From: Candidatus Ruminimicrobiellum tauri
GTDB taxonomy: Bacteria > Elusimicrobiota > Endomicrobiia > Endomicrobiales > Endomicrobiaceae
Assembly: GCA_902792865.1 (NCBI GenBank)
Contig: CADBBJ010000019.1
Location: 2,012-66,011 of the forward strand
Direction: 5' to 3'
DNA: 64,000 bases
Every line of letters begins with the position of its first letter. Within the stretch, counting starts at the first letter, position 1. This document shows, piece by piece, positions 1,268 through 40,152 of the stretch. A program made the position numbers and the translations under genes. The notes below the pieces were generated by a model. The model was not told the origin of the DNA. It ran no database searches and saw only the letters and a list, made by a program, of their open reading frames with translations.

Positions 1268-4200
1268 TTGGTTTCAATTCTTGCTGAAAGAAATTTGTAT
1301 GGTTTAAAAAAATTTCTTGATAGTAATGTTGTACATGCAGACTCCGGAAAGAGTGAGTTTTACTTCTATAAAAATTATTTTTTTAAACTTGAAAAAAATT
1401 TTTCTAAATTTCGTTTTACGGCACATGAATATGATGTTTATAATAAAATAAAAGAGAATGCAAATTTAAAGAATAATATCAACAAATATTATGGTTATTT
1501 TGATAAAGAAATTAATGGTGTAAAAAATAGAATTATTGTTAGCAAAAATTTACAAGAAGGCAAATTTATAGATTTATATGATTTTTTTTACAAGAAAAAC
1601 AAAAAGTTGTCAAAGGAAAAATGTGCCGATATCATAAAAAAAATAATTGCCATACAATCTGTTTTAAAAAACGAAAAAGGATTGTATAATTTTGATTTAA
1701 AACTACGAAACATAATGATAGATGAAGATCTTAATATAAAACTTATAGATTATGAGGGTATAGCACCTAAAGATAGTACCGTTTTTATGATCTCAGCTGA
1801 ATTACTTTTTAGCGAGATTTTCTTGGTGAATGAAGAGCTAAAATCTGATCTTTTAGATTATATACAATTTGATTTTATAATAAAATTGTTGAGTATGAAT
1901 GCTGGTACAAATATGAAAGAAGATGCTCGTAATTTATTATTGAGTCAGGGACAAAAGTTAGAAAGTCAAATAAACTACTTTAATAAATTTAAAAAATTTC
2001 GTAAAAATCATACTAACTATTTTAAACAAAACTTAGGTTTGAATGAAGCCTGGTTTGACAAAATAGAAAATATAATAAATACCGGTATAGAGCTTTCACA
2101 AAAAAGAAAATTTAATAACATTGTTTTAGTGGATGACAAAGAAAATAAAGAACTAAATAGTAAACTTTTACGAGAAAAATCTAATAGTATTTATATTATG
2201 AAAGATATTTTTATTAATGAACAAAATAAACTTGTGGAACGGGCTAATTATAAGTTTATTGAAAAGAGAAAAGAAGGAGATTATTTTAGATCAACAAGTT
2301 GGTATTATAATAGTGGTAGCTTTGCACTTAAATATGAGAGTAGTTTAGCAAACTTTATGTCAGAAATGCAGAAAAAAGGAACCGTTCTTCAAAAAATAGT
2401 AGATGAAGTTATTCCGATTGATGAGTCTAGTATATTTCAAAAAATTATATTGGGAACATTAATAGTAAAATTTATTAACACCGAAATAACAAAAGAAGGT
2501 TCATCTGTAAAATTTGAATCGTTATACAGTATATTGATTAAAGAGTCTAATATTGAACAATATTTCGGTAAAAAAGCATTTAAACAAGTTTTTATGCAAA
2601 TAATTGAAGCTGATAAGACTTTATTAGATTCCTTTTTTGATTTCAAAGAAGAATGTGAATTAATACAATTGGACAATGACAAATTTAAGTTAAAGTTTAA
2701 AGGTTCAAACTTAGAGCTTGATTTAGAAAAAGCAGAGGCAGACAATCTAATAAAGAAATTTCATCTTACCGAAGCAGATATACAAAAAAAATATACCAAC
2801 CCTGAAAGTGAAAACCAAAAGCCAAAGATTAATTCTAAAAACCCGATTGAAACAATAGCATTTAAACAAATAGGGGGAAATTATGAAAACTTCTTTGCAA
2901 TACAAATACCTGTTATAAGAGGTAAAGATAAAAAAATTCTAACGGATAAGAAAGGTAACAATATAAAACTTAAGTTAAATGTTGTTTATACAAAAGATAG
3001 TGGTGTTAGTTATCAGTTTATAGGGCAAAGTGAACAGATAGTAGAAACCTTGAAAAAAGAAGGTAAATTAACAGAAGATTTAAGCGAACTGAAATCGTTA
3101 GCAGATCTTTTATTTATAGACAGATATTGTACGGATAATATTGTAAGAGCAAAAATAGAAGGCGGAACAATTTTAACACAAGAACAAAAAAAGGCACTAT
3201 CCGATTATGTAAAAAGAGATAAAGACAATGAGTATTCTTATTTTAATGATAAGTTGATGGAAAAGGGAAGATATACATTTGCGGAAATAGAAGAGCTCTT
3301 GGCAGACACACCGAGCAGAACAAATACTTATGTGGGAGTAAAAGATGTAGAATTAAAGGTTACAAAAAATTTAGTGGAAGAGAATAAGATAGAACAAGAG
3401 ATACAAAGACTTAAAAGAGCGGGAATACACAAAGTGGTATTGTTAAAAGATAATATTTCTGATGAAGCATTGTGTTCAACGGTAATAAAAATAAGAAAAT
3501 TAGGATTACAACCGATAATAGGAATAACGGGAAATATGTTATCCGAAGAAAAGTCAACAGTTTATGATTTCATAGAAATAAGTAGCCGATTAAAGTCATT
3601 AGCAGGCTTTAGATTTATGGTTGATATAAATGATAATGTAAAAAATTTATTACAAGGAAAAGCCGACGATAAAGAGAGTATATTAGAATTAATTAAGAAA
3701 AGCGGAAAAGAAATATCCTATAAACCAAGTAATTTTGACAACCAGCAGGAGATGGAAAAAGCAGATAAATTATTTGAAGGAAAAGTTATATTTGTGGTAG
3801 AAGGGAAACAAATTATCAAAGACGAAACCGGAAAAGGAATAGAGTTCAAAAATGAAGATGTTTCCAATATTATTTCAAAGTTAGCGGGAGAAGGAAGATT
3901 TAGCTTATATTTTGATATGGATAAAGAAGATAATTTAAAGATGGCAAAGGAACTGGTAGAGAAAATATTCGGGAAAGGAGCGGAAGCAACTAAAACGATG
4001 ATATCGTTGGGAACAACATTTACGGCAAATATGTTTGCAGAATTATTTAAAAAGGATGCACCGACAAAATGTTTCAGTAATGCTTATGAACTGGGATATG
4101 GAACGGTATTTGGGGAAGTTTCACCGGAGAAAGTGGCAGGAGCATTCAAGGAATTGTTAACCGGTAGTATGACATATAGTAAGTTTAAGGAGTATATGGA

Positions 4201-4771
4201 CAAAAATAAAAATGAAGCTTTTACGGAGAACTTTAAAAATTTTGCTATAGGAGAAATAGAAGCCGAAATAAAAAAAGACGATAAACTTAAAGATGATGAC
4301 AAAACAGCAATGTTAAGACAGTATGTGATGGGATTTTTGATATCGTATATTGAAGATAAATTTAATGATTTTTATGAAACAAAAGGAGATATAAGACAAA
4401 TAGATATAAATGTAAAAAAACAAATAATGTATAGAATAATATGTTTATTACTGTCAGGTATTAATCCTACAACAATAAAGGTAAAGCTAAAGGAAGCTTT
4501 AAAGAAAAATACAAATAATCAATCACTGAAAGAATCAGTTAATAATACTAAAAAGAGTGATTTATTCGGCAAGATTTCAACAATGACGGCAAAATCGGAT
4601 AGTGTATTTGAGAGTGAGATGATTTATGCTAATGCAGATGCGGTTCCTGTAGATGTATACGACGATATAAATATATTGCTTGAAGACAGTTTAGTACCGA
4701 TAGCAGATATAGGTGAAACTGAAGAAGTTGATATGTTACAAGTTGTAAGGAGTATAGCTAAAAAGGCATAG
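1268..4771 (+). CDS. 1,167-aa giant-family paralog: protein-kinase-like domain plus conserved modules B, C and D of unknown function
   Basis: Long ORF collinear with the C-terminal ~1,300 aa of the 6267-14315 protein. Kinase-like motifs are FFKLEK, HEYDVYNKI, FDLKLRNIMID (D-x-K-x-x-N) and KLIDYEG. The frame is open from 1238, and the homologous sequence KKYFFSNLVSIL begins before the listed TTG, so the real start is uncertain. Confidence 0.8.
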   Translation: MVSILAERNLYGLKKFLDSNVVHADSGKSEFYFYKNYFFKLEKNFSKFRFTAHEYDVYNKIKENANLKNNINKYYGYFDKEINGVKNRIIVSKNLQEGKFIDLYDFFYKKNKKLSKEKCADIIKKIIAIQSVLKNEKGLYNFDLKLRNIMIDEDLNIKLIDYEGIAPKDSTVFMISAELLFSEIFLVNEELKSDLLDYIQFDFIIKLLSMNAGTNMKEDARNLLLSQGQKLESQINYFNKFKKFRKNHTNYFKQNLGLNEAWFDKIENIINTGIELSQKRKFNNIVLVDDKENKELNSKLLREKSNSIYIMKDIFINEQNKLVERANYKFIEKRKEGDYFRSTSWYYNSGSFALKYESSLANFMSEMQKKGTVLQKIVDEVIPIDESSIFQKIILGTLIVKFINTEITKEGSSVKFESLYSILIKESNIEQYFGKKAFKQVFMQIIEADKTLLDSFFDFKEECELIQLDNDKFKLKFKGSNLELDLEKAEADNLIKKFHLTEADIQKKYTNPESENQKPKINSKNPIETIAFKQIGGNYENFFAIQIPVIRGKDKKILTDKKGNNIKLKLNVVYTKDSGVSYQFIGQSEQIVETLKKEGKLTEDLSELKSLADLLFIDRYCTDNIVRAKIEGGTILTQEQKKALSDYVKRDKDNEYSYFNDKLMEKGRYTFAEIEELLADTPSRTNTYVGVKDVELKVTKNLVEENKIEQEIQRLKRAGIHKVVLLKDNISDEALCSTVIKIRKLGLQPIIGITGNMLSEEKSTVYDFIEISSRLKSLAGFRFMVDINDNVKNLLQGKADDKESILELIKKSGKEISYKPSNFDNQQEMEKADKLFEGKVIFVVEGKQIIKDETGKGIEFKNEDVSNIISKLAGEGRFSLYFDMDKEDNLKMAKELVEKIFGKGAEATKTMISLGTTFTANMFAELFKKDAPTKCFSNAYELGYGTVFGEVSPEKVAGAFKELLTGSMTYSKFKEYMDKNKNEAFTENFKNFAIGEIEAEIKKDDKLKDDDKTAMLRQYVMGFLISYIEDKFNDFYETKGDIRQIDINVKKQIMYRIICLLLSGINPTTIKVKLKEALKKNTNNQSLKESVNNTKKSDLFGKISTMTAKSDSVFESEMIYANADAVPVDVYDDINILLEDSLVPIADIGETEEVDMLQVVRSIAKKA

Positions 4772-4808
4772 TTTACATAAACGAAGCAAGGAACAAAAGA
4801 AATATGGC

Positions 4809-4846
4809 GGAGTGGGTACAACCAAACCCCTCCCCATATTTTTTTG
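4809..4846 (+). terminator. candidate rho-independent terminator after the 1,167-aa gene
   Basis: ggagtggg (4809-4816) pairs with cccctcc (4827-4833), with one bulged T and loop tacaaccaaa. A run of seven T (4839-4845) follows. Confidence 0.45.
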
Positions 4847-5177
4847 TCGTTTGTCATTGCCTTTGCCGTTCGTCATTCCGTGAAAATACGGAGTATTTTC
4901 GTGGCAATCCATCCGTTTTTGCCGTTGCCGTTGCCGTCTTTCCGTGGCAACTTGTTGCCGTGGCAATCCATAGCAAAATAAATCCGTTTTTCCTCTTTGT
5001 CGTTAAAGAACCCGGGCTTTTTCTTTTGAAGTGCGGTTTAGAGACGGCTTATGAGTGAACAATTTTTTAAACAAAAAACTACAAGAGCAAGTTTTTTCCT
5101 TATAGTAGTGATAAATAGTCTAAAAAACAAATAATTTGCTGTTCTGTCTTTTGTTTTTATTGTTGTTTTTTTATTTT

Positions 5178-5213
5178 CCATAGACTGCCACACCCTAACG
5201 GGTTCGCAGTGAC
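5178..5213 (+). repeat. P element copy 1 (ccatagactgccacaccctaacgggttcgcagtgac)
   Basis: Identical 36-mer found five times in the window, all in the same orientation. Confidence 0.95.
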
Positions 5214-5424
5214 AGCATTTATGTTACATAATTTTTTGTCATTCCCGAAAGCAGTAATCGGGAATCTATAGAAAAAACAAAAAATCCTATTTGTCATTCC
5301 CGCGGAGCAGTTGGGCGGCAATCCATAAAAAAAATAAATCCGTTTTCCTCTTTTTCGTCATTGCGAAAAAACACGAAGTGTTTTTGTGGCAATCCAGTCG
5401 TTGCCTTTGTTGTTGTTTATTATT

Positions 5425-5460
5425 CCATAGACTGCCACACCCTAACGGGTTCGCAGTGAC
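5425..5460 (+). repeat. P element copy 2
   Basis: Identical 36-mer. Confidence 0.95.
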
Positions 5461-5570
5461 ATCACATAGGAATGTTTTTTATCCGTTTTGTCTTTGTTGT
5501 TGTCGTTGTCGTTTGCCTTTGCCGTTTACCACTATATATTTAAAATTGTTTTTTGTATAATAATAGTATT

Positions 5571-6239
5571 ATGGGCAAAGGGTGTTTTTCTATAATTTCT
5601 GCAGTTTCCATAAAGCACAAGATACTGTCTTGTGTGTTGGCTTTTTTTGTTCTGATAAGTTCAACGAACTTGTTGAATTTTGAAGAATATAAAAAAACCA
5701 TTATGAAATCCGTAGAAGTATCAACAGAGTTAGTAGTAAGTCAGCTTTTTAATATATCTGCACTTCCTGTAAGTGCAATTTCAAAAATGTTTTTAGGTAC
5801 CCCTAAAATTACCGTAAAAAAAGAATGTACCCCGATACAGTTATCAAAAGAAACAACAACCGTAGAACAACAGACCGACAAAGCAAACGAAACGGTAGCA
5901 CCCGCAAATGAAACCGCAAACAATAAAGGAACCGATGCAAAAGATAATAATGTTATAAAAGCAACAATAGGATATTCAATGGTAGTCGATATATCGGACA
6001 TGAGAAAAGTTATAAAAAGTGAAGGAATAAAAGATTTGTTTGTTGCAGACAAACTGTTGGAAATAAATTTTTCTTTATGTAAAAAAGTAATAAGTGTTAT
6101 GTTTATAATGATGTTATTATTAGCAATATTACTTGCAAGAAAGAATGTAGGCAACAATAATATTATAAATAACAATAAAATAAAATATAAAAGATTAACT
6201 CAGCTTATTTTATGTAAGTTGGGTTATTTTTGTGTATAA
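5571..6239 (+). CDS. hypothetical small membrane protein directly upstream of the giant gene
   Basis: ORF track 5553..6239; the first ATG is at 5571. It has an N-terminal hydrophobic segment (ILSCVLAFFVLISS) and a C-terminal one (VISVMFIMMLLLAILLA), with a T/N/A-rich low-complexity middle. I recognise no family. Confidence 0.45.
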   Translation: MGKGCFSIISAVSIKHKILSCVLAFFVLISSTNLLNFEEYKKTIMKSVEVSTELVVSQLFNISALPVSAISKMFLGTPKITVKKECTPIQLSKETTTVEQQTDKANETVAPANETANNKGTDAKDNNVIKATIGYSMVVDISDMRKVIKSEGIKDLFVADKLLEINFSLCKKVISVMFIMMLLLAILLARKNVGNNNIINNNKIKYKRLTQLILCKLGYFCV

Positions 6240-6266
6240 AAGCACAAAATCAAGGGGAATGAATGC

Positions 6267-9200
6267 ATGAATATGTGTAAAAACATATTTAACATGTTAG
6301 TGAAAAAAGAAACACTAAATCAATCATATTTAAAATTAAAAGATTGGCTGTTATCATTTAATTTGGTAAAGATAACAGCGGTAATAGTATTGAATTGTTT
6401 CTTGCTGACGGCAGTATACGGACAAGCGGTGGTAGGAGTATTGGAGAACCAAAGAGCAACGGAACAATTCAAACAAATATTTGAGGATTTTGATGTTCTG
6501 TACAATTACGGAAAAATATCATCAGCCAAATATAAGGGAAGTGATAAGGTAGTTATAAACATACAGGATTTGCATAACAATGCGGAAGTACAAAAGAATA
6601 TAAACAACATAATATCATTGTTTGACGAAAAGTACGGGGTAAATAACATATATTTGGTAGGAGCTTACGGACAGGTAAGTACAAAGTGGTTAACGGCACC
6701 CAAAGATAAAAAAATAAGAGAAAAAGTAATAGAAACATTATTGGAATCCGGGAAATTAACCGGAGCGGAATATTATTCTGCAGTGAAGAATAAAACGGAG
6801 ATAATAAAAGGGTTAGAAAAGAAAGAAGAATATTTTGACAACTTAAAAAGGTTTGAAAGTATAATAGAAAATTCGCCCGTAATAACAATGCATATAGAAG
6901 CAATAAAAGAAACGGTAAAGAAATTGCAGTCAAAATATTATAATAAGCAACAAAAAGAAATAGAAAAATTATCCCAAAAATATGAATTAGAGCAAATATC
7001 GGCAGACGAATATTTTGAAAAGATGGAAAAATATGCAAAAAATTATGCAATGAATATAGACAAATATAAAAATCTGTCCGGGTATATGGATTTAATGGAC
7101 AGAAAGAAAAATCTTGATTATGAAAAGATAAACAAAGAATTGCAGACTTTTGTAGCGACATTAAAAGAAAGAATACCGTACAATGTATATAAAGCATTGA
7201 CAGATGCGACAAAAAACTTTTTGGAGATAGACAAATTGTACGGCTATATAATAAGGTTATCCAAACAATACAATTTGGAGTTATCGGGTAATTTCAAAGA
7301 GTTAGAAAGATTTTTTGAATATATAGAGTTAAGCCAGACAATAAATCCGTTTGAATTAATGAAAGAAAAACAAAATTTTAAAGACGAACTAAACGACAAA
7401 TTTTCGGTAAACAAGGTAGAACAGGAAGTAATATTTTTAAGTAATTTTGTGGGATATTATGAAGATTATTTAACAGGGAAAATAACAGCCCCGAATTACG
7501 AATATTATAAATCCAACATAGAAAAATTTAAATATATATGGATAAAATACATAGATAACAGAGAAATAGTAGCATTAGAGAAGTACGAAAAGATATCGGA
7601 TGAATTCTATAAAATAAACATAGCGAGAAACAAGTATTTTATAGAAAATATGAAAGAAGTAATGGATGCAAAGAAACTGGGAGTGGAAGTAAAAGGAAAA
7701 GATGAAATACAAAAGAGCATGAACTCGTTAAAGAAATCCAAAGAGATATACATAACGGTAACGGGAGGCTTTCATACCCAAGAGATGTCTAAAATGTTAT
7801 CCAAAGCAGGGATAACAAACATAATAATAACCCCTAGTGTAACAACGGATACAAAAGAATCGGACGAGATACATTATAATTTAGCCAAAGAGCAGGCAAA
7901 AATAGCATTTCAGACATTGGCAACATTGCCACCATCACAGCAGGAAGTTCAAGAAAGAGTAAAAGAATTTTTGAGTGCTATACAAACAGCGGGATTACAA
8001 GATATAAAAGCAGAAGATTTGCAAGAAATCATTGATGAAGTTCTTGACCGAATAAATGTTGATCGTCGGAAAAATAATGAGGCTAATGTATCGGTAACCA
8101 TAAATTCCGTTACCGGTGCAGAAGTAACGGTAGGTGATAAAACTTATGAAGTTAAAGCTGATAACAACCAACAGAAAGTTAATAAAGAAAACAACTTATA
8201 CAAATCAAAAAGTGTATTAGGTTTAATGAAAGTGTCAATAGCAATGTCAATACTAACTTTGATGCTTATACCGATATCAGGTGTAACAGGAAGTTTTCCT
8301 ATAGTACCGATAATATTATTTGGTCTGTCATTTGGAAAAGACGGATTTGAATGGAAACAGTATTCTTTATTGAACGAAGGTGCACAAAAGATAAGTTCTG
8401 ATGCAGAAATAAAAAGTAACATAGCAGAATCTCAAAGTGCATTCTCTGACGATAACGATTCAAAAGAACTAAAAAACAGGATAAATAAAAAATTTGCGGA
8501 TTTAGGATTTGAAGAGAGCAATATAAAAAATATAGAGATAGGTGATTTTACCGAAAAAAATGAAATGAAAAAGGATGAATTTGCCAATGTTGATGTTCGT
8601 AAGCAAAGATTAAAAACAGGTTTTTTACATATCAATTACAGATTAATACAAAAAATATTTATGGACGGGACAAACTTTAAAAATGATATTTGGAACGATG
8701 TATATTTTTCAATGTTTATAGCCCATGAATTAAGACATAGAAATCATCCGAGATGGCATGAAGTTGCAGTAAGTTTTTTTGATATATTTTATTTTATAAC
8801 GGTATTTGTAAGAGAGTTAAAAAAAAGGATAAGAGAGTTAATAAAAAGAATGTTTGTTAAAAAAGAAGAAAAAGAAGTAGAAGAAATAATCGCAAAAGAA
8901 TTAAAGGAATGGCAGTCTTCACTAAAGAACTTAAAACAAAAATATAACTCAAAATCAATAAATGATAACGGAGAAATAAAAGACAATGACTTGAAAGTAG
9001 CAACGGAAAGAAAAACAGTCCGTTCCAATGCAATGCAAGCCGGCAGTTTACAAAATACATTAGCAGTTAGTAATGCTCAATCTGCAAACAAGACTAACAA
9101 CAATGAAAAAGAAGTAAAACCTGTAATAATTGAAACTAATCCTTTGACTGAAACAATAATAGATGAATTTGATAATAAAAAGATAGTAAGTTCCAAATAT

Positions 9201-12200
9201 GAACAGAACGAAAATGGGATGAGAAATATTATAATTTATTTTAAAGACGGTGATGTAGAGAAGAGTGTTAAACTTTTAACCAAAGACCAAAATCTAATAA
9301 AACCTGAAGATAATACGAATATATCGGTGGCTGATTGGATAATTAGTAAAACAGCATATTTAGAAACAAAAATTAATTTTAATTCCGACCGAACAGATAT
9401 AATAAATTATAAAAAAGAATTGACTTCACTTAACGGTGCAAAAATATCGGGTATTGAATATGATAAAAATAATAATAGAATTATAATTTATCATAGAAAA
9501 GAAAAGTCTCATATCAAAATGGCTTACTTCTCTCTTTTTAAAGCTCTTACATCCGAACAAAAATCAAATTTGGAAAGTCTTAATAACAGTGATAATATAA
9601 TCGGAAATAATTTGGTTGATTGGATACATAAAAATAAAGATATTTATGGAATAAGGATAGAAGAGAACGGTATACGAAGTTTAACGGAATTGGCAGAACT
9701 TGTCGGAGATGCAAAAATAAAAAATATTGAATGTTATAGAGAAGACAAAACCAAGAAAATTAAGATTGAGATTTCTTATGTTAAAGAACAAGACGGACTG
9801 CCACAAGTTGTTATTTTTTACGGTCCCACGGATAAAGAAGGCAAGGAATTTGAAAAATTGAAAAAATATAATGTAGATTTACCTAAAAAGCCTGATATAG
9901 GCAGACCGATAGTTTCTTGGATACTCGGTAACCGAAAATCTTTAAAAATAGATATAGAAAAGATAGATGAAATTCGGATAACAGGTAAAAATAAACTTGA
10001 TAGTTTTATTAATCTTAGCGGAAAGTCAAATATAGAAGGTATAGAATATTATCAGGATAATAATGAGAAAAAGATTATAGCTTATTACAAAGAAAAAAAT
10101 ACTGCAACCGGAAATAAACGGATAAAAGGTGTTGTTTTTTCTGTTTCCAAAGATCTTACGGCAGAACAAAAAGCAAAATTGTATACGGAAACAAAAAATA
10201 TAAATTCGTTAAGTGATTTGATAACAAATATCATGATAAATTATGGAATAAAATTAAAAAAACAATTGAAAATAAACCGACATGGACAAATTTTTACATT
10301 TAAAAACAATAAGGTAAACAAAACAAATTATGATATTTCTTATCAAAATATTAAGTTGTTATCAATAAAAGATAACAAAATTACTATTGAAAATCCCGAT
10401 AAAATAAAAAATGTTTATTTAAATTTAGAAACCGAAGATATGGCATATTATTATGATGATAGAATACAGGATTTTTATAACAAGAATTCAAAATCTTTAA
10501 AAAATTTTATAACAGAGAACGATATTGATACAACCGATTTTTTCATTAGAGTTGCATTAAATAAGGCGATTTTAGATTTTGTAAATGAGGATATAGAAAA
10601 TGTGATTGTATTATCTGACAAAAATAAAGGAAAACTAAAGGAATATTTCTTTTCTAATTTGATTTCTATACTTGATAAAGGAAATACAAATAATTTTATA
10701 AAGAATTTTAGTAAGATTGATTATAAACAACAAAAGTTAAGAAATCCGTTTTATACCTACAATAATTATTTTTTTAAATTCAGCAATAATATAAAAGAAT
10801 TCAGGCTTTTAAAAAATGAATATGATTTTTATAATAAAATAAAAGGAGATAAAGAATTAAATAAAAAAACAGGAAAAAATATTAATGAATATTATGGTTG
10901 TTTTGATAAAGAAATTAATAATAAAAAATATAAATTTGTTGTTAGTAAAAATTTAACAAAAGATAACAGATTTGAGAGTTTAGATAAATCTGTTAAGAAT
11001 AATAATTTTACAAAGAAACAATGTACTGAAATTATAAAACAAGTATTAAAAATACACTCTGATTTAGAAGAAAAGGGATTGTACAATTATGATTTAAACC
11101 CGCAAAGCATAATGATAGATAAAGATCTTAACATAAAACTTATAGATTGTGATGGTATTGTACCCAAAGACTGTACCGGTTTTGTATCTTCATATATATT
11201 ACCTTATGATTATTTCTTGGCGGATGAAAATCTTCGTTCCTATTGGTATGATTATGTAAAATTTACTTTTGTGGTAAATGTTTTTTTTGATATAAAAAAT
11301 CTTGATAAACAGATGGCAACAGACTTCAAAAGACTGCAATACATAATTGACTATATGGAAAAAAATAAAAATAAATTTGCAAGACGAAAAAACAGAAGAA
11401 CATTGGCTCGGTATGGTCGGTATCTTAGAATATTTAGTGAAATTTCCGATAAATATGCTAACTTTTTTGAACAATTTAAGCTTGATAAAACCCGTTTAGA
11501 TAAAATAAAAGATATAGTAAAAACAAGTGTAACTCTTTTTCTGCATCCGGATGAGAGTTATAACAAAATTTCTATATTGGAACTACAAGAAATAGACAGT
11601 AATCTTTTAATGGAAAAAGAAAAAGATTCTGTTTATGTAATCAAAAATATTGTTATTGATAAATCAAATAAATTAGTGAGAGTATATAACGATAAATTTA
11701 TTAAAAAAAGAGAAAAAGGAGATTGGGTTAAACCGGATAGTTGGTATTATAATTTAGATTCAAAAAAGATTGTATTCTATCCGATTTTATATAAATTTAC
11801 GGAATATGTACAGAAGTATGGAACCATTCTTCAAAAAATAGTAGACGAATCTATTCCGATTGATGATACTGATATATTTCAAAAATTAGTATTGGGAACA
11901 TTAATAAAAAATTTTATTGATGAAAATACGGATAGCAATATTAAAGATGACAACAAACAAAATGAATTTTTATACAAAAAATTGAAGACCGCCGGTAATA
12001 TTAAAAAATATTTCGGTAAAGATGCATTTAAAAAAGTTTTTATGCAAATAATAGAAGCAGATTCGGAATTATTAAAATCCTTTTTTAATTTCAACGAAGA
12101 ATGTAAGTTAATAAAAGACAAAAAGGATGATAAAAAATTTTATCTGAATTTTAGTTCAGGATTAAAACTTGAGTTAAGTAACAAAGATTTGAATAAAATA

Positions 12201-14315
12201 ACAGATAAATTTCCTAAAGTTAAAGTAGATGAAATTCCCAAAGAAAAAGAAAATATACCGCCATCTCCGCCGAAATCAGTAAAAACAGAGAAACAAATTA
12301 AAACAGATTCTCATAAAGTTGAAGATAAATACATGAAAGTATATCAAAAGATAAAATTCGTTAGTCCTATTGAAAATATTAAGTTTAGTCAGATAAGCGA
12401 AAATTATCAAAAACTGTTTGCAATACAAATACCTGTTGTAAGAGATAAATACGGTAAAATTCTTACGGATGATAAAAACAACAAGATAAAACTTAAATTA
12501 AATGTTGTTTATACAAAGGAAAACGGTATTAGCTATTATTTTACAGGGCAAAGTGAAGGAACGGTAAAACAATTAATAAGGAACGGTAAACTATCGGAAG
12601 ATTTAAAAGAACTGAAACCGTTAGTTGATCTTTTGTTTATAGACAGATATTCTGCGGATAAGAATTTAAGAGAAGAAATAGAAAACAAAAATCTTTTATG
12701 GAAAGAACAGATAAAAGCACTGTCTGATTATGCAAAAAAAGATGAAGATATGAATTATTATGAGTTTAAATGTAAGTTGATAGGACAGGGTTACACATTT
12801 ACCGAAATAGAACAAATATTGTCAGATATTCCCGGCAGAACAAATACTTATGTCGGATTAAAGGATGTAGAATTAAAACTCACAAATCAGTTATTGGATG
12901 AGAGTAAGATAATAAGAGAGATACAAAGACTTAAAAGAGCAGGAATACACAAAGTGGTATTGCTGAAAGATAAAGATGTTTCAAATAAAGAGTTGTATAT
13001 AATAATAGAAATAATAAGAAAATCAGGTTTACAGCCGATAATAGGATTGACAAGAGAAATGTTGTCCGTTAGTGCGGATGAAAAGTCAAAAGTCTATGAC
13101 TTTATAGAAGAAAGTATAAAAATTAAAGCATTATCAGGATTTAGATTTATGTTTGATATTGACGAAAAAGTGGGTAAACTTTTAAATTATAAAAAAGATA
13201 TTTATGAAATGATTAGCATATTGGATTTAATAATGAATATCGGGAAAGAAATATCTTATAAGCCAAGTAATTTTAATAATGAAAAAATAGATATTGCAGA
13301 TGAATTATTTAAAGGAAAAGTTATATATGTAGTAGCCGGAAAACAGTTTACAAGAAATAACGAAGAAGATTTGGTTATCAATAGAACTGAAGAAAATTCT
13401 CTTAAGAAATTAGCGGGAGAAGGAAGACTTAGTTTATATTTTGATATTGATAAAGATAATTTAAAGGTAGCGAAAGCACTGATAGAGAGAATATTTGGAA
13501 AAGGAACGGATGCAATCAAAACGATGATATCGTTGGGAACAACATTTACGGCAAATATGTTTGCAGGATTATTTAAAAAAGATTCTGCATCAAAGGGTTT
13601 TAGTAATGCTTATGAAATCGGATATGAACCGATATTTGGGGATATTTCCCCGGATATAGTTGCAGTAGTATTCAAGGATGTATTAACCGATAATATGAAC
13701 TTTAATGAGTTTTTAGAGTATGAACAAAGAGAGAAAGAACAAAAATCTAAAAAAACTATAGCTTTTACAAAAGAATTTGATAAACTTGTTATTGAAGATA
13801 TAAAAGAAGTAAGCAAATATAATATTTCAGAGAAAGAACAAACAGCAATGTTAAAGCAATATGTAATAGGATTTTTAATGTCATATATTGAAACTCATTT
13901 TGATGAGTTGTATGAAGTAAAACGATCGGATAAAATGATAGATATAAAACAAATGGATATAAATGTAAGGAATCAAATAATGTATAGGATATTACTTTTA
14001 TTACTGAAAGAGATGATTTTTAACAATATAAAACAATATGTAAGTATTAAAGATAGTCAAAAAGAAGGTTCAATGAAACAATCGGTTAATAATATCAAAA
14101 ATAACGAGTTATCCGTAAATATTTCAAAAATGTTAATGAAAACAAATATAAATATTAATAGTGTGCTTAAAAACAATATAGATACGATAGCTATATGTAA
14201 TGATATAAATGTGTTACTTGAATACAGTTTATTACCGGTAACTACAAACGAATTATCAAAAACAGGAAATTTAATAAAAGATATTAAAAATATAGTAAGA
14301 AAAGCATCTTATTAA
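6267..14315 (+). CDS. 2,682-aa giant multidomain membrane-anchored protein (possible ChaN/Tiki-like domain, TM pair, HExxH, ~105-aa repeats, degenerate kinase-like domain, modules B/C/D)
   Basis: Uninterrupted 8,049-nt ORF preceded by aagggga. It has an N-terminal hydrophobic anchor (ITAVIVLNCFLLTAVYG) and an HELRH motif at 8724-8738. The kinase-like motif is YDLNPQSIMID...KLIDCDG at 11088-11156. The C-terminal half is collinear with ORFs 3-1247 plus 1268-4771. Confidence 0.9.
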   Translation: MNMCKNIFNMLVKKETLNQSYLKLKDWLLSFNLVKITAVIVLNCFLLTAVYGQAVVGVLENQRATEQFKQIFEDFDVLYNYGKISSAKYKGSDKVVINIQDLHNNAEVQKNINNIISLFDEKYGVNNIYLVGAYGQVSTKWLTAPKDKKIREKVIETLLESGKLTGAEYYSAVKNKTEIIKGLEKKEEYFDNLKRFESIIENSPVITMHIEAIKETVKKLQSKYYNKQQKEIEKLSQKYELEQISADEYFEKMEKYAKNYAMNIDKYKNLSGYMDLMDRKKNLDYEKINKELQTFVATLKERIPYNVYKALTDATKNFLEIDKLYGYIIRLSKQYNLELSGNFKELERFFEYIELSQTINPFELMKEKQNFKDELNDKFSVNKVEQEVIFLSNFVGYYEDYLTGKITAPNYEYYKSNIEKFKYIWIKYIDNREIVALEKYEKISDEFYKINIARNKYFIENMKEVMDAKKLGVEVKGKDEIQKSMNSLKKSKEIYITVTGGFHTQEMSKMLSKAGITNIIITPSVTTDTKESDEIHYNLAKEQAKIAFQTLATLPPSQQEVQERVKEFLSAIQTAGLQDIKAEDLQEIIDEVLDRINVDRRKNNEANVSVTINSVTGAEVTVGDKTYEVKADNNQQKVNKENNLYKSKSVLGLMKVSIAMSILTLMLIPISGVTGSFPIVPIILFGLSFGKDGFEWKQYSLLNEGAQKISSDAEIKSNIAESQSAFSDDNDSKELKNRINKKFADLGFEESNIKNIEIGDFTEKNEMKKDEFANVDVRKQRLKTGFLHINYRLIQKIFMDGTNFKNDIWNDVYFSMFIAHELRHRNHPRWHEVAVSFFDIFYFITVFVRELKKRIRELIKRMFVKKEEKEVEEIIAKELKEWQSSLKNLKQKYNSKSINDNGEIKDNDLKVATERKTVRSNAMQAGSLQNTLAVSNAQSANKTNNNEKEVKPVIIETNPLTETIIDEFDNKKIVSSKYEQNENGMRNIIIYFKDGDVEKSVKLLTKDQNLIKPEDNTNISVADWIISKTAYLETKINFNSDRTDIINYKKELTSLNGAKISGIEYDKNNNRIIIYHRKEKSHIKMAYFSLFKALTSEQKSNLESLNNSDNIIGNNLVDWIHKNKDIYGIRIEENGIRSLTELAELVGDAKIKNIECYREDKTKKIKIEISYVKEQDGLPQVVIFYGPTDKEGKEFEKLKKYNVDLPKKPDIGRPIVSWILGNRKSLKIDIEKIDEIRITGKNKLDSFINLSGKSNIEGIEYYQDNNEKKIIAYYKEKNTATGNKRIKGVVFSVSKDLTAEQKAKLYTETKNINSLSDLITNIMINYGIKLKKQLKINRHGQIFTFKNNKVNKTNYDISYQNIKLLSIKDNKITIENPDKIKNVYLNLETEDMAYYYDDRIQDFYNKNSKSLKNFITENDIDTTDFFIRVALNKAILDFVNEDIENVIVLSDKNKGKLKEYFFSNLISILDKGNTNNFIKNFSKIDYKQQKLRNPFYTYNNYFFKFSNNIKEFRLLKNEYDFYNKIKGDKELNKKTGKNINEYYGCFDKEINNKKYKFVVSKNLTKDNRFESLDKSVKNNNFTKKQCTEIIKQVLKIHSDLEEKGLYNYDLNPQSIMIDKDLNIKLIDCDGIVPKDCTGFVSSYILPYDYFLADENLRSYWYDYVKFTFVVNVFFDIKNLDKQMATDFKRLQYIIDYMEKNKNKFARRKNRRTLARYGRYLRIFSEISDKYANFFEQFKLDKTRLDKIKDIVKTSVTLFLHPDESYNKISILELQEIDSNLLMEKEKDSVYVIKNIVIDKSNKLVRVYNDKFIKKREKGDWVKPDSWYYNLDSKKIVFYPILYKFTEYVQKYGTILQKIVDESIPIDDTDIFQKLVLGTLIKNFIDENTDSNIKDDNKQNEFLYKKLKTAGNIKKYFGKDAFKKVFMQIIEADSELLKSFFNFNEECKLIKDKKDDKKFYLNFSSGLKLELSNKDLNKITDKFPKVKVDEIPKEKENIPPSPPKSVKTEKQIKTDSHKVEDKYMKVYQKIKFVSPIENIKFSQISENYQKLFAIQIPVVRDKYGKILTDDKNNKIKLKLNVVYTKENGISYYFTGQSEGTVKQLIRNGKLSEDLKELKPLVDLLFIDRYSADKNLREEIENKNLLWKEQIKALSDYAKKDEDMNYYEFKCKLIGQGYTFTEIEQILSDIPGRTNTYVGLKDVELKLTNQLLDESKIIREIQRLKRAGIHKVVLLKDKDVSNKELYIIIEIIRKSGLQPIIGLTREMLSVSADEKSKVYDFIEESIKIKALSGFRFMFDIDEKVGKLLNYKKDIYEMISILDLIMNIGKEISYKPSNFNNEKIDIADELFKGKVIYVVAGKQFTRNNEEDLVINRTEENSLKKLAGEGRLSLYFDIDKDNLKVAKALIERIFGKGTDAIKTMISLGTTFTANMFAGLFKKDSASKGFSNAYEIGYEPIFGDISPDIVAVVFKDVLTDNMNFNEFLEYEQREKEQKSKKTIAFTKEFDKLVIEDIKEVSKYNISEKEQTAMLKQYVIGFLMSYIETHFDELYEVKRSDKMIDIKQMDINVRNQIMYRILLLLLKEMIFNNIKQYVSIKDSQKEGSMKQSVNNIKNNELSVNISKMLMKTNININSVLKNNIDTIAICNDINVLLEYSLLPVTTNELSKTGNLIKDIKNIVRKASY

Positions 14316-14830
14316 CAGATTAAAGTCTATCATATTCGCCATTCGCCATCTGCCGTTTGCCGTTGCCGTTGCCGTCTTTCCGTGGCAACTTGTTGCCGTG
14401 GCAATCCATCCGCTTTTTGTCATTGCGAAAAAACACGAAGTGTTTTTGTGGCAATCCAGCCGTTTTTGCCGTTGCCTTTTGCCTTTGCCGTTCGTCATTC
14501 CGTGAAAATACGGAGTATTTTCGTGGCAATCCATAAAAAAAATCCGTTTTCCACTTTTTTGTCATTGCGAGACCGAAGGTCGTGGCAATCCAGCCGTTTT
14601 TGTCGTTTAGTTGTTGTTTTTGTCGTTGCCTTTTGCCGTTGTCGTTTTTTATTTTCCATAGACTGCCACACCCTAACGGGTTCGCAGTGACGGCACATAG
14701 GATTGTTTTTCATCCGTTTTGTCTTTTGCCGTTGCCGTTCATTACCCTAATGTTCTTCCTAAAAGTCCAATATGTATTGAACCTCTACATCTTCTTGACA
14801 AAAAAAGTATAATGTTATACAATCATAAGG
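14316..14830 (+). repeat. mosaic intergenic repeat island B (4 hairpin units, 1 P element, GCCGTT spacers)
   Basis: Hairpin units lie at 14374-14408, 14419-14458, 14494-14533 and 14561-14592, and the P element at 14656-14691. Three hairpin units are identical in sequence to units of island A. Confidence 0.9.
14656..14691 (+). repeat. P element copy 3
   Basis: Identical 36-mer. Confidence 0.95.
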
Positions 14831-27111: not shown

Positions 27112-30051
27112 ATGAGTTTAAAAAAGTATTTCTTTGTTACTGCTTTTTTGTTAGGAATGCAAACATTTGCATTTGCAGACGGTTCTGCAGTTGAACCCAG
27201 AGGTGATTTTAGACCAACTCCGGGGTTTGTTGATGCAGAAAAGTTAAATGTTCGTGATATGGCCGTTAGGTTAGAACTTTTACTTGAAGGTATTTTTAAC
27301 AAAAAAGGTGACGGTTGGTATACGGCTCCTAACGAATTAAGCAATTATTTCAGATATAATTCCTCAGATAAGTCACTAAAAAATCAACCTTGGAAAGATC
27401 GTTGGGGTCAAACTTTATTTTTAGATGTAGCTTTTAAACCTACAAGTTGGGCAAGTGCACAATTCGGTTTGAGTTTTATCGGGGATTATGCTTCCAGATA
27501 TTGGGCTACGGTAAATCATCCTCATAGAATGTTTGATGAAGGTCAAATTTTTCCTCAGTTTTCTTGGAATACTGCAAAGATAGAAGTTCATAACGATTGG
27601 GCAAGATTACAATACAATAGAAATCAGTTTCATTATAATTGGGGATATGAAGGTGATTTGTTTAACATTTATCAGGCAGAAACAGATCCGTATAATGTAC
27701 TTATGGTAACCGGAAGAAAAGTACCTGAATGGTATCAATTAAATATGGAAGGAAATTTCGGAAATCTTGAGTTGCAATACGGTGAACCGATAACTGACTA
27801 TAAGGAAGGTTTTTATGTAAAATATAGAAATATTTTTGGCAGTAATGTAAATTTCTTTTATGTAGACCATGTTATTCCTTACGGTGAGAAAAGTGAAAGA
27901 ATGAGAACAGCTGAAGTTAGTACGGATTTTAAGTTGGGTAGCAGTACATTGGAAGTTGGTGGAAAGTATAGACCTTTTAGATTGAACAGGTCTTATGATT
28001 ATGTTGATTCTCATGTACCAATAGGTGAAGGTACACAAGGAACTGACTTGATTATCAAACAGGATAAAACAACTTTCTCTGATGCTTTCGGTGGTGCCGT
28101 AAAATTATCTGTACCGAAGACTTTTTTTGTTGATGTTGTTACGGCAAAATATTTGTATGAAGGACTTGTTGCAGGAAATAAGCAACAGTTAGATTTATCG
28201 GCACAACAATCAATAACAAATACTATCACGGGACATCTTTCTTATATGAGAAGGAAACCTCTCTTACAGGCAATTCCTGCAAGAGGTAATGAGTATGGAG
28301 TAGATTTAGTTTCTACCAGAGGAGAATCTCAACCTTTTTGGGTATGGTGGAGAAATCCTCAAACAGGATTTGATAATAGGGATACGGATGAATTTGCTCT
28401 TACATTTACTTATGATCCTACACCCAGTACATGGTTTTATAAATATGAACCGAATACACTGGAAGCATGGAATATAAATTCAAAAAAAGATGCAGTTTTT
28501 TCTTTTGCTACACAGTTTAAGTTAACCAGATATTTAGGTGGAACGGATAAACAGGTATATAGAAACGAAAAGGGTGAAATAGTTTGGGAAAATTATCCGG
28601 GTTCTACAATATGTGGTGCTATGCCTTCAAAAAGATATTTGGGCTCTTTTAAGTTTTTAACAAGAATGTTTCTTCTTGATGAGTATGAATTTATTTATGA
28701 TTTTGAAGTCGGAGAAGAACCGTCAACATTATCAGCGGCATATACACCGCAGAAAGAAGCTTTCTTAAAAGAAATAACAGGTTATTTTAAGACAAATTTA
28801 GCTTTTCATACCGGTCCGTATAAAATTAAGGTTGGTTATGGAAAGAATACTTGGGGTCCTAATGATTGGCATAGAGCTTTTGGTTCTACTTATGATGATG
28901 TGTATTATGCACAGGTTTCCAGGAATTTTTCAAAATCCTTAATTATCGGAGTAGATTATGTTGGTGGAAGAAAAACAGATTTGAATATATTGAAAAAAAT
29001 AGAAAAAGAAGGTAAATCCTCAAGAAATGAGTTAGGATCTTTTGATGAAATAAGAACTTATGTCAGACTTATATTTGATAGTTTATTTAAGTTAGGAAGT
29101 AAGCCTAGAGTGAAAGGCGATATAATACCTCCATCTTGTTCTTTAGCTTTAGAATCTGATATAATAATACATTCTAACGGACAAAGATTGGACATTTATC
29201 CGATAGCTTACGATGAAAGCGGTATAGCAAGCTGGAGAGTAACTATAGTTGATGATAAATCTAAGATAGTTAAGTCTTTTGATGGGTTTGGTGATTGTCC
29301 TCAGTCTATAAAATGGGATGGAAAGAGTTTTGAAAACAAATATGTAACAGATGGAACTTATTATATAGAGTTGACAGTTAGTGATACATTTGGTAATATG
29401 GCAAAATCAGAAGTTTGTAAGGTAAGTTTGATAACACCCGAAGCACAGGTAGCAGTAGAGAAAGTAGATAAGGGTATAAAATTCTCTTTCGCTTCCGAGG
29501 TTCTTTTTGATTTTGATAAAGTAAAAATAAAAGAAAGTGCAGAAAAGAAACTTAAAGAAACTATAAGAATATTAGATGCTTATGAATATAAATTCTTAAG
29601 CATAGAAGGACATACGGATGATGTAGGAACAGATGAATACAATTTGAATTTGTCTGAAAGAAGAGCAGAAGCTGTTGCTGAATATTTAGTAAAATTAGGA
29701 GTAGATAAAGATAAAATTTCAGTTGTAGGTTATGGAGAAAGTGTTCCTGTTGCAACTAATGAAACTAAATCCGGTAGAGCATTAAACAGAAGAGTTGAAA
29801 TTATTGCTACACAGGATGACCATCATCATAATAATAGCAGTAGCAACAGCAACAGCAATAGCAATAGCAATAGCAATAGCAATAGCAATAGCAATAGCAA
29901 CAGTAATAGTAATATTAATATTAATATTAATATTAATAATAGTAATAATAATAGTAATAATATTAACGATAATAGTAATAAGAATAGTAGTAAGAAGAGT
30001 AATAAGAGTAAGAAGAGTAATAAGAATAATAACCGTAATAAGAAAAAATAA
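27112..30051 (+). CDS. large outer-membrane protein: N-terminal beta-rich domain, FlgD-Ig-like domain, OmpA C-terminal peptidoglycan-binding domain, and an N/S/K low-complexity tail
   Basis: Signal peptide MSLKKYFFVTAFLLGMQTFAFA. FlgD-Ig-like segment WDGKSFENKYVTDGTYYIELTVSDTFGN. OmpA motif SIEGHTDDVGTDEYNLNLSERRAEAVAEYL...NRRVEII. Confidence 0.85.
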   Translation: MSLKKYFFVTAFLLGMQTFAFADGSAVEPRGDFRPTPGFVDAEKLNVRDMAVRLELLLEGIFNKKGDGWYTAPNELSNYFRYNSSDKSLKNQPWKDRWGQTLFLDVAFKPTSWASAQFGLSFIGDYASRYWATVNHPHRMFDEGQIFPQFSWNTAKIEVHNDWARLQYNRNQFHYNWGYEGDLFNIYQAETDPYNVLMVTGRKVPEWYQLNMEGNFGNLELQYGEPITDYKEGFYVKYRNIFGSNVNFFYVDHVIPYGEKSERMRTAEVSTDFKLGSSTLEVGGKYRPFRLNRSYDYVDSHVPIGEGTQGTDLIIKQDKTTFSDAFGGAVKLSVPKTFFVDVVTAKYLYEGLVAGNKQQLDLSAQQSITNTITGHLSYMRRKPLLQAIPARGNEYGVDLVSTRGESQPFWVWWRNPQTGFDNRDTDEFALTFTYDPTPSTWFYKYEPNTLEAWNINSKKDAVFSFATQFKLTRYLGGTDKQVYRNEKGEIVWENYPGSTICGAMPSKRYLGSFKFLTRMFLLDEYEFIYDFEVGEEPSTLSAAYTPQKEAFLKEITGYFKTNLAFHTGPYKIKVGYGKNTWGPNDWHRAFGSTYDDVYYAQVSRNFSKSLIIGVDYVGGRKTDLNILKKIEKEGKSSRNELGSFDEIRTYVRLIFDSLFKLGSKPRVKGDIIPPSCSLALESDIIIHSNGQRLDIYPIAYDESGIASWRVTIVDDKSKIVKSFDGFGDCPQSIKWDGKSFENKYVTDGTYYIELTVSDTFGNMAKSEVCKVSLITPEAQVAVEKVDKGIKFSFASEVLFDFDKVKIKESAEKKLKETIRILDAYEYKFLSIEGHTDDVGTDEYNLNLSERRAEAVAEYLVKLGVDKDKISVVGYGESVPVATNETKSGRALNRRVEIIATQDDHHHNNSSSNSNSNSNSNSNSNSNSNSNSNSNININININNSNNNSNNINDNSNKNSSKKSNKSKKSNKNNNRNKKK
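29836..29940 (+). repeat. coding hexanucleotide microsatellites: (AGCAAY)n followed by (ATTAAT)n
   Basis: Seven perfect agcaat units lie at 29854-29895, flanked by agcaac/agcagt variants. They are followed by aatattaatattaatattaatattaataat at 29911-29940. Confidence 0.9.
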
Positions 30052-39171: not shown

Positions 39172-39329
39172 ATATTAAAATATATAAAAAATCAATTTTG
39201 CCGTTCGCCGTTGCCGTTTGTTGTTTCCTTTGCCGTCATTGAGAAAATACGGAGTATTTTTGTGGTAATCCGGTCGTTGCCTTTTCTGTTGTTGCCGTTT
39301 CGTCTTTGTAGTTGTTGTTTTTTATTTTT

Positions 39330-39365
39330 CCATAGACTGCCACACCCTAACGGGTTCGCAGTGAC
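39330..39365 (+). repeat. P element copy 4
   Basis: Identical 36-mer. Confidence 0.95.
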
Positions 39366-39562
39366 AGCACCCCTGATTGTTTTTCATCCGTTTTGTCTTT
39401 GTCTTTTGCCGTTGTCGTTCCGCCGTTCGTCGTCTTTCCGTGAAAAAATTTTGATTTTTTCGTGGCAATCCATAAAAAAATAAATCCGTTTTCCACTTTT
39501 TTGTCATTCCGTGACCGAAGGTCGTGGCAATCCAGTCGTTGCCTTTGTTGTTGTTTATTATT

Positions 39563-39598
39563 CCATAGACTGCCACACCCTAACGGGTTCGCAGTGAC
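39563..39598 (+). repeat. P element copy 5
   Basis: Identical 36-mer. Confidence 0.95.
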
Positions 39599-40152
39599 AG
39601 CATCCTGATTGTTTTTCATCCGTTTTGTCTTTGTTGTTGCCGTTGCCGTTATCGTTGCTGTCTTTCCGTGAAATTTCTGCGAATTTTCACGGAAAGACAT
39701 AAAAAATAAATCCGTTTTCCTATTTGTCGTTAGAGAACCCGGGCTTTTTCTTTTGAAGTGCGATTTAGAGACGGCTTATGAGTGAACAATTTTTTAAACA
39801 AAAAACTACAAGAACAAGCTTTTTCCGAAGGGCAATGTGTCTTTGTTTGAGCTTTTTTCGTTACAATATGTCGTTAGAAAAAAGCGAGTTGGCCTTTGGT
39901 TTAAAAAATTGGAACGAAAATAGAATGTACTTATAGTAGTGATAAATGGTCTAAAAAACAAATAATTCGCCGTTTTGTCTTTGCCGTTGCCGTTGTCTTT
40001 TGCCGTCTTTGCGAGGCAACTTGTTGCCGTGGCAATCCATAAAAAAATAAATCCGTTTTCCTGTTTGTCGTTAGAGAACCCGGGAAATTTTCTTTGAAGT
40101 GAGTTTTAGAGACAGTATATGAACGAAGTATTTTTTAGAGTACAAATATAAA

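Follow-up and report, generated by a model that had tools for sequence, protein, structure and literature searches.

A putative Ssn-targeted array of CGTC-tagged hairpins beside a giant-gene cassette in a rumen Elusimicrobium

We analysed a window of 64,000 nucleotides (the whole stretch of DNA considered here) on contig CADBBJ010000019.1 of Candidatus Ruminimicrobiellum tauri, and within it a repeat-rich spacer, island A, that consists of short hairpins and other reusable modules. Island A is the spacer 3′ of a 1167-aa gene (stop at 4771) and precedes a gene starting at 5571 (or 5553). An intrinsic terminator of the upstream gene was found on the plus strand at 4796-4847 (RNA fold of -25.2 kcal/mol, z = -5.85, followed by U7); position 4847, at which the initial annotation had begun the island, is the end of this terminator, which forms the left boundary and stands outside the module set. 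Module annotation covered 4772-5570 and reproduced exactly the order proposed earlier for 4847-5552: a hairpin, hexamers, a hairpin, a linker, an X unit, a P unit, two hairpins, a linker, a hairpin, a second P and a tail. The G+C enrichment that had been described was also recovered, with 38.0% for island A and 51% for its hairpin modules against 29.9% for the whole window; the eight other intergenic spacers had 13-29% in seven cases and 36% in the remaining one.

The anatomy of the island can be read module by module. Hairpin A1 [gaaaatac], at 4871-4912 on the plus strand, carries a CGTC head, the inner stem gaaaatac/gtattttc and a GGCAATCCA tail, and the same module is present at 14493-14534. 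A (TTGCCG)n hexamer tract follows on the plus strand at 4915-4937 (Tandem Repeats Finder: period 6, 3.2 copies, 100% match); the window holds eight hexamer tracts, every one on this strand. Hairpin A2 [ggcaac] (4935-4970, plus), with a CGTCTTTCCG head and the inner stem ggcaac/gttgcc, has copies at 14373-14408 and 40004-40039. The segment 4972-5137 on the plus strand is made up of a linker (AAATCCGTTTTYC, 4972-4998) and, from 4999, the X unit, a reusable A+T-rich spacer; it belongs to a direct-repeat family, D7, in which 4975-5099 is 91% identical to 39702-39826 and 68% to 40043-40167. The first P copy (5178-5216, hairpin 5181-5214) lies on the minus strand and reads TGTC-ACTGC-GA-[ACCC GTTA GGGT]-GTG-GCAGT-CTA.

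Two plus-strand hairpins come next. A3 [cccgaaagc] (5237-5268) reads TGTC-ATTCCCG-aaagcagtaa-CGGGAAT-CTA, has a DNA fold of z = -4.2 and is dRS3-like in its ATTCCC...GGGAAT frame; A4 [cccgcgg] (5292-5326) is TGTCATTCCCGCGGAGCAGTTGGGCGGCAATCCAT, the sole genuine hairpin module of the window that fits the strict SRM string given below. Hairpin A5 [aaaaaacac], at 5356-5396 on the plus strand and again as the same module at 14418-14458, has a CGTCATTGCGA head, the inner stem aaaaacac/gtgttttt, a GAA loop and a GTGGCAATCCA tail. The second P copy (5425-5463, hairpin 5428-5461, minus strand) forms a tail-to-tail dimer with A5, with a spacer of 30 nt between the two. The tail of the island (5462-5552, plus) comprises the conserved P trailer (family D2), a (TTGTCG)n tract at 5488-5513 and the promoter region of the downstream 222-aa gene.

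A single shell was found to be common to all hairpin modules: an unpaired 5′ YGTC, a 5-bp basal stem, a small internal loop and an unpaired C(C/T)A tail. The window contains 14 hairpin modules and five P. The head is CGTC or TGTC in all 14 hairpins and, on the minus strand, in all five P, and all 19 copies have a GTC 5′ of the palindrome together with a C directly after the stem; 11 of the 14 hairpins end in a CCA tail, the remainder in CTA, CCG or CAT. The basal stem is ATTGC/GCAAT or ATTCC/GGAAT, the general form that includes P being A(T/C)T(G/C)C...G(C/G)A(A/G)T. The hairpins are two-tier structures of 31-41 nt, in which the basal stem and internal loop are topped by an inner stem of 4-12 bp (4-9 bp in most copies) with loops of 3-9 nt. 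Every module folds as single-stranded DNA (ssDNA) in such a way that head and tail are left unpaired. The inner stem-loop varies in sequence from copy to copy with its pairing retained, and nine of its 10 types in the window fold as hairpins.

Read on the minus strand, P follows the same hairpin design; its basal stem differs by a compensated exchange of A-T for C-G (stems run ATT...AAT in the hairpins and ACT...AGT in P); a 26-mer of P is invariant across the five window copies. Because P is the same hairpin type on the opposite strand, a hairpin and a P make up a tail-to-tail dimer. Such a dimer is formed by the last hairpin ahead of each P, and in three cases the two are about 30 nt apart. 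All modules had been described as lying in one orientation; this stands in so far as each module type keeps a single orientation, and falls in so far as P is an inverted hairpin of the same family. Two composite units recur, [hairpin-linker-hairpin-hexamers-P-trailer] and [hairpin-linker-X].

The recurrence of the shell is well above chance. With at most one mismatch, the tail GTGGCAATCC gave 14 matches against 1.47 expected, and 14 was reached in none of 100 shuffles; the head YGTCWTTSCG gave 12 matches against 0.26 expected. A generic pattern, YGTC plus a 5-bp stem starting with A, was dropped in favour of the exact shell, as its 20 matches compared with 11 in shuffles and it is unspecific in an A+T-rich genome. 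An empty shell, tgtcattccgtggcaatcc, was seen at L095:9409-9428 (contigs used for comparison are given here by L numbers); it has the head and tail of a hairpin module without the inner stem-loop, which suggests that inner hairpins can be lost or inserted.

The same vocabulary was found at two further islands of the window. Island B (14316-14750, plus strand, 45% G+C) lies between a 2682-aa gene and a tRNA-Asp gene and is composed of a hexamer tract, four hairpin modules, a linker and a P. Island C (39190-40152, plus strand), with five hairpin modules, two P and two X, lies 3′ of rsfS and is convergent with a radical-SAM gene. Linker, X and P units recur in at least three islands; the reusable A+T-rich spacers comprise the linker, X and both the leader and the trailer of P. 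The spacer 41755-42139, with 36% G+C, is high for this genome and lies between the minus-strand radical-SAM ORFs (open reading frames) 40153-41754 and 42140-42598, which may be one split gene.

In the host lineage, an uncultured rumen Elusimicrobium whose PheS is 92% identical to that of rumen Elusimicrobia metagenome-assembled genomes (MAGs) and 64% to that of Endomicrobium, the same modules were present at seven loci or more, at least four of them outside the window. The window's strain itself recurs in the NCBI MAG GCA_978015965.1 and across numerous ENA assemblies from the rumen. Islands with this vocabulary lie 3′ of a sulfatase gene (L095), between two giant-gene cassettes (L096) and after the CRISPR locus of GCA_978015965.1 (L217). 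That locus, at L217:166-6010, consists of Cas9-Cas1-Cas2 genes and a CRISPR array with a 36-nt repeat; a second short array after it has a repeat ending aatttctactattgtagat and is Cas12a-like, and a degenerate hairpin island is seen at 6130-6600. In L218, a relative of about 80% identity, an island stands at the position of island A and its composite unit is tandemly duplicated. A more distant species (L010) has two related CGTC hairpins with (cattata)n and (ttcaactc)n tracts in its pheT-rplM spacer at 13400-13620; the same spacer of the window is ordinary and short, unlike that of L010. Tail-to-tail pairs with the same shell were also seen in Endomicrobium and other Elusimicrobia.

The expectation that modules would recur elsewhere was therefore confirmed, and from their distribution over loci and species they are neither a local duplication nor fragments of an insertion sequence. 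Syntenic loci were compared, as had been proposed. In the nearest species (PheS 80-92% identical) synteny stops at window position 15790, which leaves islands A and B without a counterpart; in L218, island A has kept its position. An exact 21-mer of P gave no match in one-genome-per-species bacterial contigs or in JGI metagenomes, and by this sequence evidence P would be either lineage-specific or unassembled in those collections. A synthetic protein query built from the spurious ORFs of the islands had no match in the protein database.

Island A adjoins a multi-copy cassette that is made up of a gene for a membrane-like protein of about 222 aa and a giant-protein gene (5571-14315 in the window; also L091, L095, L096, L217 and L218). 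The cassette family comprises 27 protein clusters, mainly on contigs of 1-4 kb, and its copies can be tandem; in most sampled copies an island lies directly upstream. The 2682-aa giant protein of the window has no Pfam domain, and one paralogue is a weak protein-kinase match. The two giant genes of the window are 75-83% identical across kilobases.

The islands are hypervariable. Comparison with assemblies that match the window at 100.0% identity for more than 20 kb showed differences within the islands, at a coding microsatellite around 29.5 kb and, in a single assembly, at a contig end. Island A has an extra 346-bp [hairpin-linker-hairpin-P] block in two independent assemblies (L087 and L089) and a long X in a third (L088), X occurring in long and short forms. 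Island B of GCA_978015965.1 has two hairpins fewer, and its right half is island A-like. At island C, the contigs of other strains end inside the array or exit into different genes. Since the strain indels are bounded by repeated modules, recombination of an unequal or ectopic kind is indicated. Identity is 90-100% for hairpin modules at places where it is 70-82% for the paralogous genes that flank them. These comparisons go part of the way to showing that the arrays are the most recombination-active DNA of the genome, with whole modules gained, lost and swapped among otherwise identical strains. A practical consequence is that short-read assemblies of this rumen lineage break or mis-join at the arrays.

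Some other variable sites were recorded in the same comparisons. A coding period-6/12 repeat (AGCAAT/AGCAAC...) at 29828-30019, within an OmpA-like gene (27112-30051), varies in length among otherwise identical strains, with gene products of 973-979 aa. The ORFs 39-1247 and 1268-4771 form a single 1820-aa gene in strain L087; the window is short by about 64 nt at 1236, and the frame is consequently shifted between the two ORFs. A pseudogene, an on/off variant and an assembly error might each account for the split. Contig L004 opens (1-140) with an inverted X copy joined to a forward X copy, and the junction is probably a palindromic assembly artefact at the repeat.

The shell was further observed in association with ssn-like genes. 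A scan of metagenomes for two GTGGCAATCCA tails 35-65 nt apart matched at least 120 contigs, and at least 58 unrelated contigs carried two or more full YGTCWTTGCGA...GTGGCAATCC elements in head-to-tail arrays. Among the matches listed, 217 copies were on the major strand of their contig and 13 on the other, arrays reached 21 copies, contig G+C spanned 33-66% and 103 distinct inner sequences were counted. When ORFs near the arrays were clustered, one recurrent real protein was obtained, a single-domain GIY-YIG nuclease of about 94 aa, with hairpins abutting its gene; the gene lay among the elements in at least eight distinct contigs. Alignment of these proteins revealed invariant Y6, Y17 and E64, the positions mutated in SsnA, and a profile search with them returned at least 8000 homologues. 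Contig L219 has a motif-ssn-motif layout with this shell, its hairpins being of the form GTCATTGCGAG...GTGGCAATCC. At L219:600-10700 the ssn-like gene is immediately preceded by a type IVb pilus cluster (TcpQ, secretin, T2SSE/F, bundlin), a neighbour of interest given the link of SsnA to DNA uptake. Another low-G+C organism (L224/L225:1-6700) has a 1660-1722-aa gene bracketed by two GIY-YIG genes and an adjoining array of reversed CGTC heads with a period of 74-75 nt, which makes a second case of giant gene, ssn and array in an unrelated genome. The idea that hexamer tracts are reiterated CGTC heads from repeated cleavage was rejected, CGTY occurring 0.20 times per 30 nt upstream against 0.50 downstream in the arrays among the matches listed.

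Three ssn candidates were compared with the window, and only one of them, P0068, fits its lineage; P0040 and P0045 belong to other organisms (tetranucleotide correlation with the window of 0.59 and 0.44). P0068 is carried by contigs L220-L223, and the samples they come from (ERZ28612972 and ERZ27280606) contain the window's strain as well. The tetranucleotide correlation of these contigs with the window is 0.88-0.89, as compared with 0.88-0.96 for known loci of the lineage and 0.06-0.64 for the other contigs tested, whatever their G+C. On L220-L223, two or three tandem GIY-YIG genes of 95-97 aa are flanked by A3-, A4- and P-like modules (genes at L220:6001-6814 and at L221 and L222:6001-7340; repeat unit of 523 bp). 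A forward P-like hairpin stands 5′ of the first gene, near-copies of A4 and A3, likewise forward, stand 5′ of the others, and 3′ of each gene there is a reversed hairpin; upstream of the genes in L221, the near-copy of A3 is at 6471-6503 and that of A4 at 6419-6456. A reversed [hairpin-hexamers-P] unit lies 5 kb away. The tandem genes are placed between hsdM and hsdS of a type I restriction system, and RloB/AAA_21, SIR2-like, protein-kinase and HEPN/nucleotidyltransferase genes are their neighbours. Such a defence-island setting of an Ssn nuclease is not described in the Ssn study (PMC11893778).

GIY-YIG nucleases that act on single strands make up the Ssn family (Chenal et al. 2025, PMC11893778). 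The NTS, CGTCATTCCCGCGMAVGCGGGAATCYRG, which contains dRS3, is bound by Neisseria SsnA as ssDNA alone and on one strand alone; the enzyme cuts a few nucleotides upstream of the NTS and has no action on RNA (PMC11893778). Cleavage is governed by the three nucleotides 5′ of the palindrome and binding by the C after it, while any loop is tolerated, the loop is dispensable and stem extensions at the loop are tolerated as well (PMC11893778). SsnA lowers transformation by NTS-containing DNA, and ssn genes are typically flanked by the motif (PMC11893778). The islands share with NTS/SRM motifs the (C/T)GTC head, the A-T-initiated palindrome, the C after the stem, the orientation specificity and the freedom of loop identity. 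Single-domain GIY-YIG genes of about 95 aa are flanked by the identical shell in the metagenomes, and by copies of the A3, A4 and P types in L220-L223, which probably belong to the window's lineage. The islands differ in their Elusimicrobium host and in the two or three tandem ssn paralogues that the lineage apparently has amid restriction-modification and other defence genes.

On this basis we favour, with a probability of roughly 65%, the reading that island A is a NIME-like array (Neisseria intergenic mosaic element) of Ssn-type, CGTC-tagged hairpins, putative ssDNA targets of the lineage's Ssn that would steer cassette exchange. By homology and genomic context, we infer that the hairpins are ssDNA targets of the lineage's Ssn nucleases and shape recombination of the neighbouring giant-gene cassettes. 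Whenever the DNA became single-stranded, during replication or repair or as incoming transforming or conjugating DNA, each module would extrude as a hairpin. Small single-domain Ssn GIY-YIG nucleases would then read the stem base together with the GTC on its 5′ side and the C that follows the stem; like Neisseria SsnA, for which this has been shown, they would bind strand-specifically and nick the DNA 5′ of the motif at a distance of a few nucleotides. Given the tolerance of Ssn for any loop and for a stem lengthened at the loop position, the inner stem-loop could vary freely; in this way the published biochemistry of SsnA (PMC11893778) would explain the conserved shell and variable core of the islands. 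The enzyme is apparently encoded by the lineage itself, as two or three tandem ssn-like genes in a neighbourhood of defence genes, and the arrays probably gate exchange of the adjoining giant-gene cassettes, as has been proposed for NIME arrays.

Several observations weigh against this interpretation. No GIY-YIG or ssn gene was found in the 64-kb window or in contigs collinear with it, and L220-L223 appear to belong to the window's lineage by their modules (81-90% identity), shared samples and composition, not by physical linkage. The strain comparisons were made on short-read metagenome assemblies, which are prone to mis-joining repeats, and some of the partner switches at island C may be assembly chimeras. 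GC skew follows gene direction, and replication-strand and transcription-strand orientation of the islands are inseparable by skew. The strict SRM search string, HGTCWYN(0-2)YYVSBRHN(0-5)WNVSBRGN(0-2)RNCYNB, matched one of the 14 hairpins (5292-5326) and one off-register site at 39994-40023, as the stems are extended; with a central gap of 0-25 nt it matched four of the 14, shuffles giving 0.0-0.08 matches. Most of the island stems (ATTGCGA...GTGGCAAT, two-tier, 31-41 nt) are thereby outside the formal definition of the motif. Formal membership is incomplete on account of this single strict match and of the published CGTC families being shorter-stemmed and rarely head-to-tail.

Other explanations of the islands were weighed against the same data. 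They could be selfish non-autonomous transposons, REPIN-like or like miniature inverted-repeat transposable elements (MITEs), moved in trans by a hairpin-specific transposase of the RAYT, IS200/IS605 or IS110 type, with the islands as graveyards of nested insertions. This is unlikely, even though the modules are scattered across many loci and species, contigs spanning 33-66% G+C among the matches listed carry the same shell, modules are present or absent among strains, L095 holds an empty shell, and the Ssn authors themselves noted that the motif-ssn-motif layout resembles an insertion sequence (PMC11893778). Neither the window nor some 150 kb of lineage contigs yielded a transposase or RAYT; specifically, no Y1_Tnp or other transposase domain was found by Pfam among window ORFs of at least 150 aa or in the Pfam annotations listed for lineage contigs. 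Outside the individual hairpins there are no inverted repeats, target-site duplications were not observed, and an insertion sequence or MITE with both features was not found. The strain differences are blocks bounded by P units or shared with another island, as expected of unequal or ectopic recombination and not of insertion, and the position of island A is kept in the approximately 80%-identical L218. BLASTN of the island against plasmids and phages yielded nothing beyond one chance-level match of 63 nt (E = 5e-3) to a Mesomycoplasma hyorhinis hypothetical-protein gene. Readings as a CRISPR, an integron attC array or a diversity-generating retroelement were discarded: the period of repeat and spacer is not constant, and neither an integrase nor Cas nor a reverse transcriptase lies nearby.

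A role at the RNA level, in which the islands are transcribed 3′ untranslated regions whose stacked hairpins stabilise the upstream mRNA or attenuate read-through like the repetitive extragenic palindromes (REPs) of E. coli, is quite unlikely. Each island does lie downstream of a plus-strand gene, and the heads of its hairpins are in sense orientation; in one shell variant the CCGUG/CGUGG part pairs, by G-U wobble, on the sense strand only; and REPs are reported mainly downstream of coding regions. The probability of such a role is lowered by the terminators that precede the islands and by the lack of T-runs after the hairpins. The strong canonical terminator at 4796-4847 separates the stop codon from island A, an apparent terminator hairpin with a T-run (judged by eye, not folded) stands ahead of the L218 counterpart, and no hairpin module is followed by a T-run, while the genuine terminators of this genome are classical. 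SsnA, moreover, is inactive on RNA (PMC11893778), and with Rfam 15, at gathering and permissive thresholds, only tRNAs reached the gathering score, the best island matches having E = 0.14-0.32. Still more improbable, in our judgement, is that the islands are functionless by-products, copied with segmental duplications of the giant-gene cassette and decayed by slippage. Island A and the islands of L095, L096, L217 and L218 are just upstream of cassette paralogues, island B is just downstream of one, and the identity of the two giant genes would agree with such a history. But island C lies 3′ of rsfS with no cassette adjoining in the window, L010, from another species, has related hairpins between pheT and rplM, the hairpin modules are more alike than the flanking paralogous genes, and the shell is conserved across unrelated bacteria and beside ssn genes.

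Should the Ssn-target reading hold, a broader conclusion may be entertained, although we regard it as doubtful: NIME-type arrays would not be peculiar to Neisseria, and a rumen Elusimicrobium would use Ssn-targeted two-tier hairpin stacks as recombination gates beside giant-protein cassettes. The tandem ssn paralogues would then cut incoming or exposed ssDNA at the stacks and control which cassette variants exchange, it would be suggested that Ssn systems double as anti-ssDNA defence, and the conserved shell, whose inner hairpin can be swapped, would mirror in nature the tolerance of stem extensions shown in vitro. The first characterisation of Ssn nucleases and their motifs dates from 2025, with functional work confined to Neisseria; the present locus would be a second and phylogenetically distant system. 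Its useful traits are large arrays that are hypervariable between clonal strains and lie beside a multi-copy giant-gene family, and nuclease genes that are tandemly amplified among defence genes. A single 20-nt shell that is common to bacteria of 33-66% G+C, with the enclosed hairpin free, would likewise serve as a natural data set on Ssn recognition.

Among known repeat systems, the islands were compared with the CGTC-tagged REP superfamily, whose members have a CGTC or TGTC head, A-T-initiated stems and a CCA tail (Di Nocera, De Gregorio and Rocco 2013, PMC3733652). Neisseria dRS3, Rickettsia RPE-4/-6 and Wolbachia clusters are counted in this superfamily, which "apparently lack a dedicated transposase" (PMC3733652). 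These family-level features of head, stem start and tail are all present in the island hairpins, which are also located between co-directional or convergent genes and have tail-to-tail dimers in elusimicrobial relatives. The published families have stems of 8-9 bp, loops of 4-5 nt and mostly head-to-head dimers, with head-to-tail arrangement "negligible" and clusters rare (PMC3733652); the island stems, in contrast, are longer and composite, and head-to-tail stacking is dominant, with one inverted P per unit. Elusimicrobia are absent from the five phyla listed for CGTC REPs (PMC3733652).

In overall layout the islands are much like NIMEs, in whose arrays families of reusable RS units of 50-150 bp stand between dRS3 hairpins (Bentley et al. 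2007, PMC1797815). These are dynamic between strains, show a G+C wave, adjoin variable surface genes and were stated to be absent outside Neisseria (PMC1797815). The islands likewise consist of short G+C-rich hairpins split by reusable A+T-richer units, with a G+C wave; their positions are conserved while repeat number and array length vary by strain, and they adjoin variable, probably surface-related genes. In contrast to dRS3, which is ATTCCC-N8-GGGAAT, only A3 is similar (ATTCCC-N13-GGGAAT) and the dominant shell is ATTGC...GCAAT; the island hairpins are, furthermore, mainly head-to-tail, and hexamer microsatellite tracts are part of the grammar.

The likeness to REP/BIME-type mosaics (bacterial interspersed mosaic elements) that the initial annotation had pointed out was well founded: clustered extragenic palindromes, conserved linkers and two opposed hairpin types, here hairpin and P, are found in both. 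The REP head is, however, GTAG and the island head CGTC, no RAYT was found, and BIMEs strictly alternate whereas the islands run several hairpins head-to-tail and then one inverted P. A further likeness may lie in the STRR heptamer tracts of cyanobacteria and the small dispersed repeats nested in them, reportedly the subject of work by Elhai et al. in 2008, as tiny hairpin repeats inside short tandem oligonucleotide tracts in intergenic DNA; the sequences are unrelated. When the shell was used as a text string in a literature search, it retrieved unrelated primers only. The suggestion that this vocabulary was undescribed is not supported, as the hairpins carry the features of CGTC-tagged REPs (PMC3733652) and match NTS/SRM motifs (PMC11893778) and the array follows the definition of a NIME (PMC1797815). 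Genuinely peculiar to the present case are the extended two-tier hairpins, head-to-tail stacking, (TTGCCG)n tracts, the X and P units and the host phylum.

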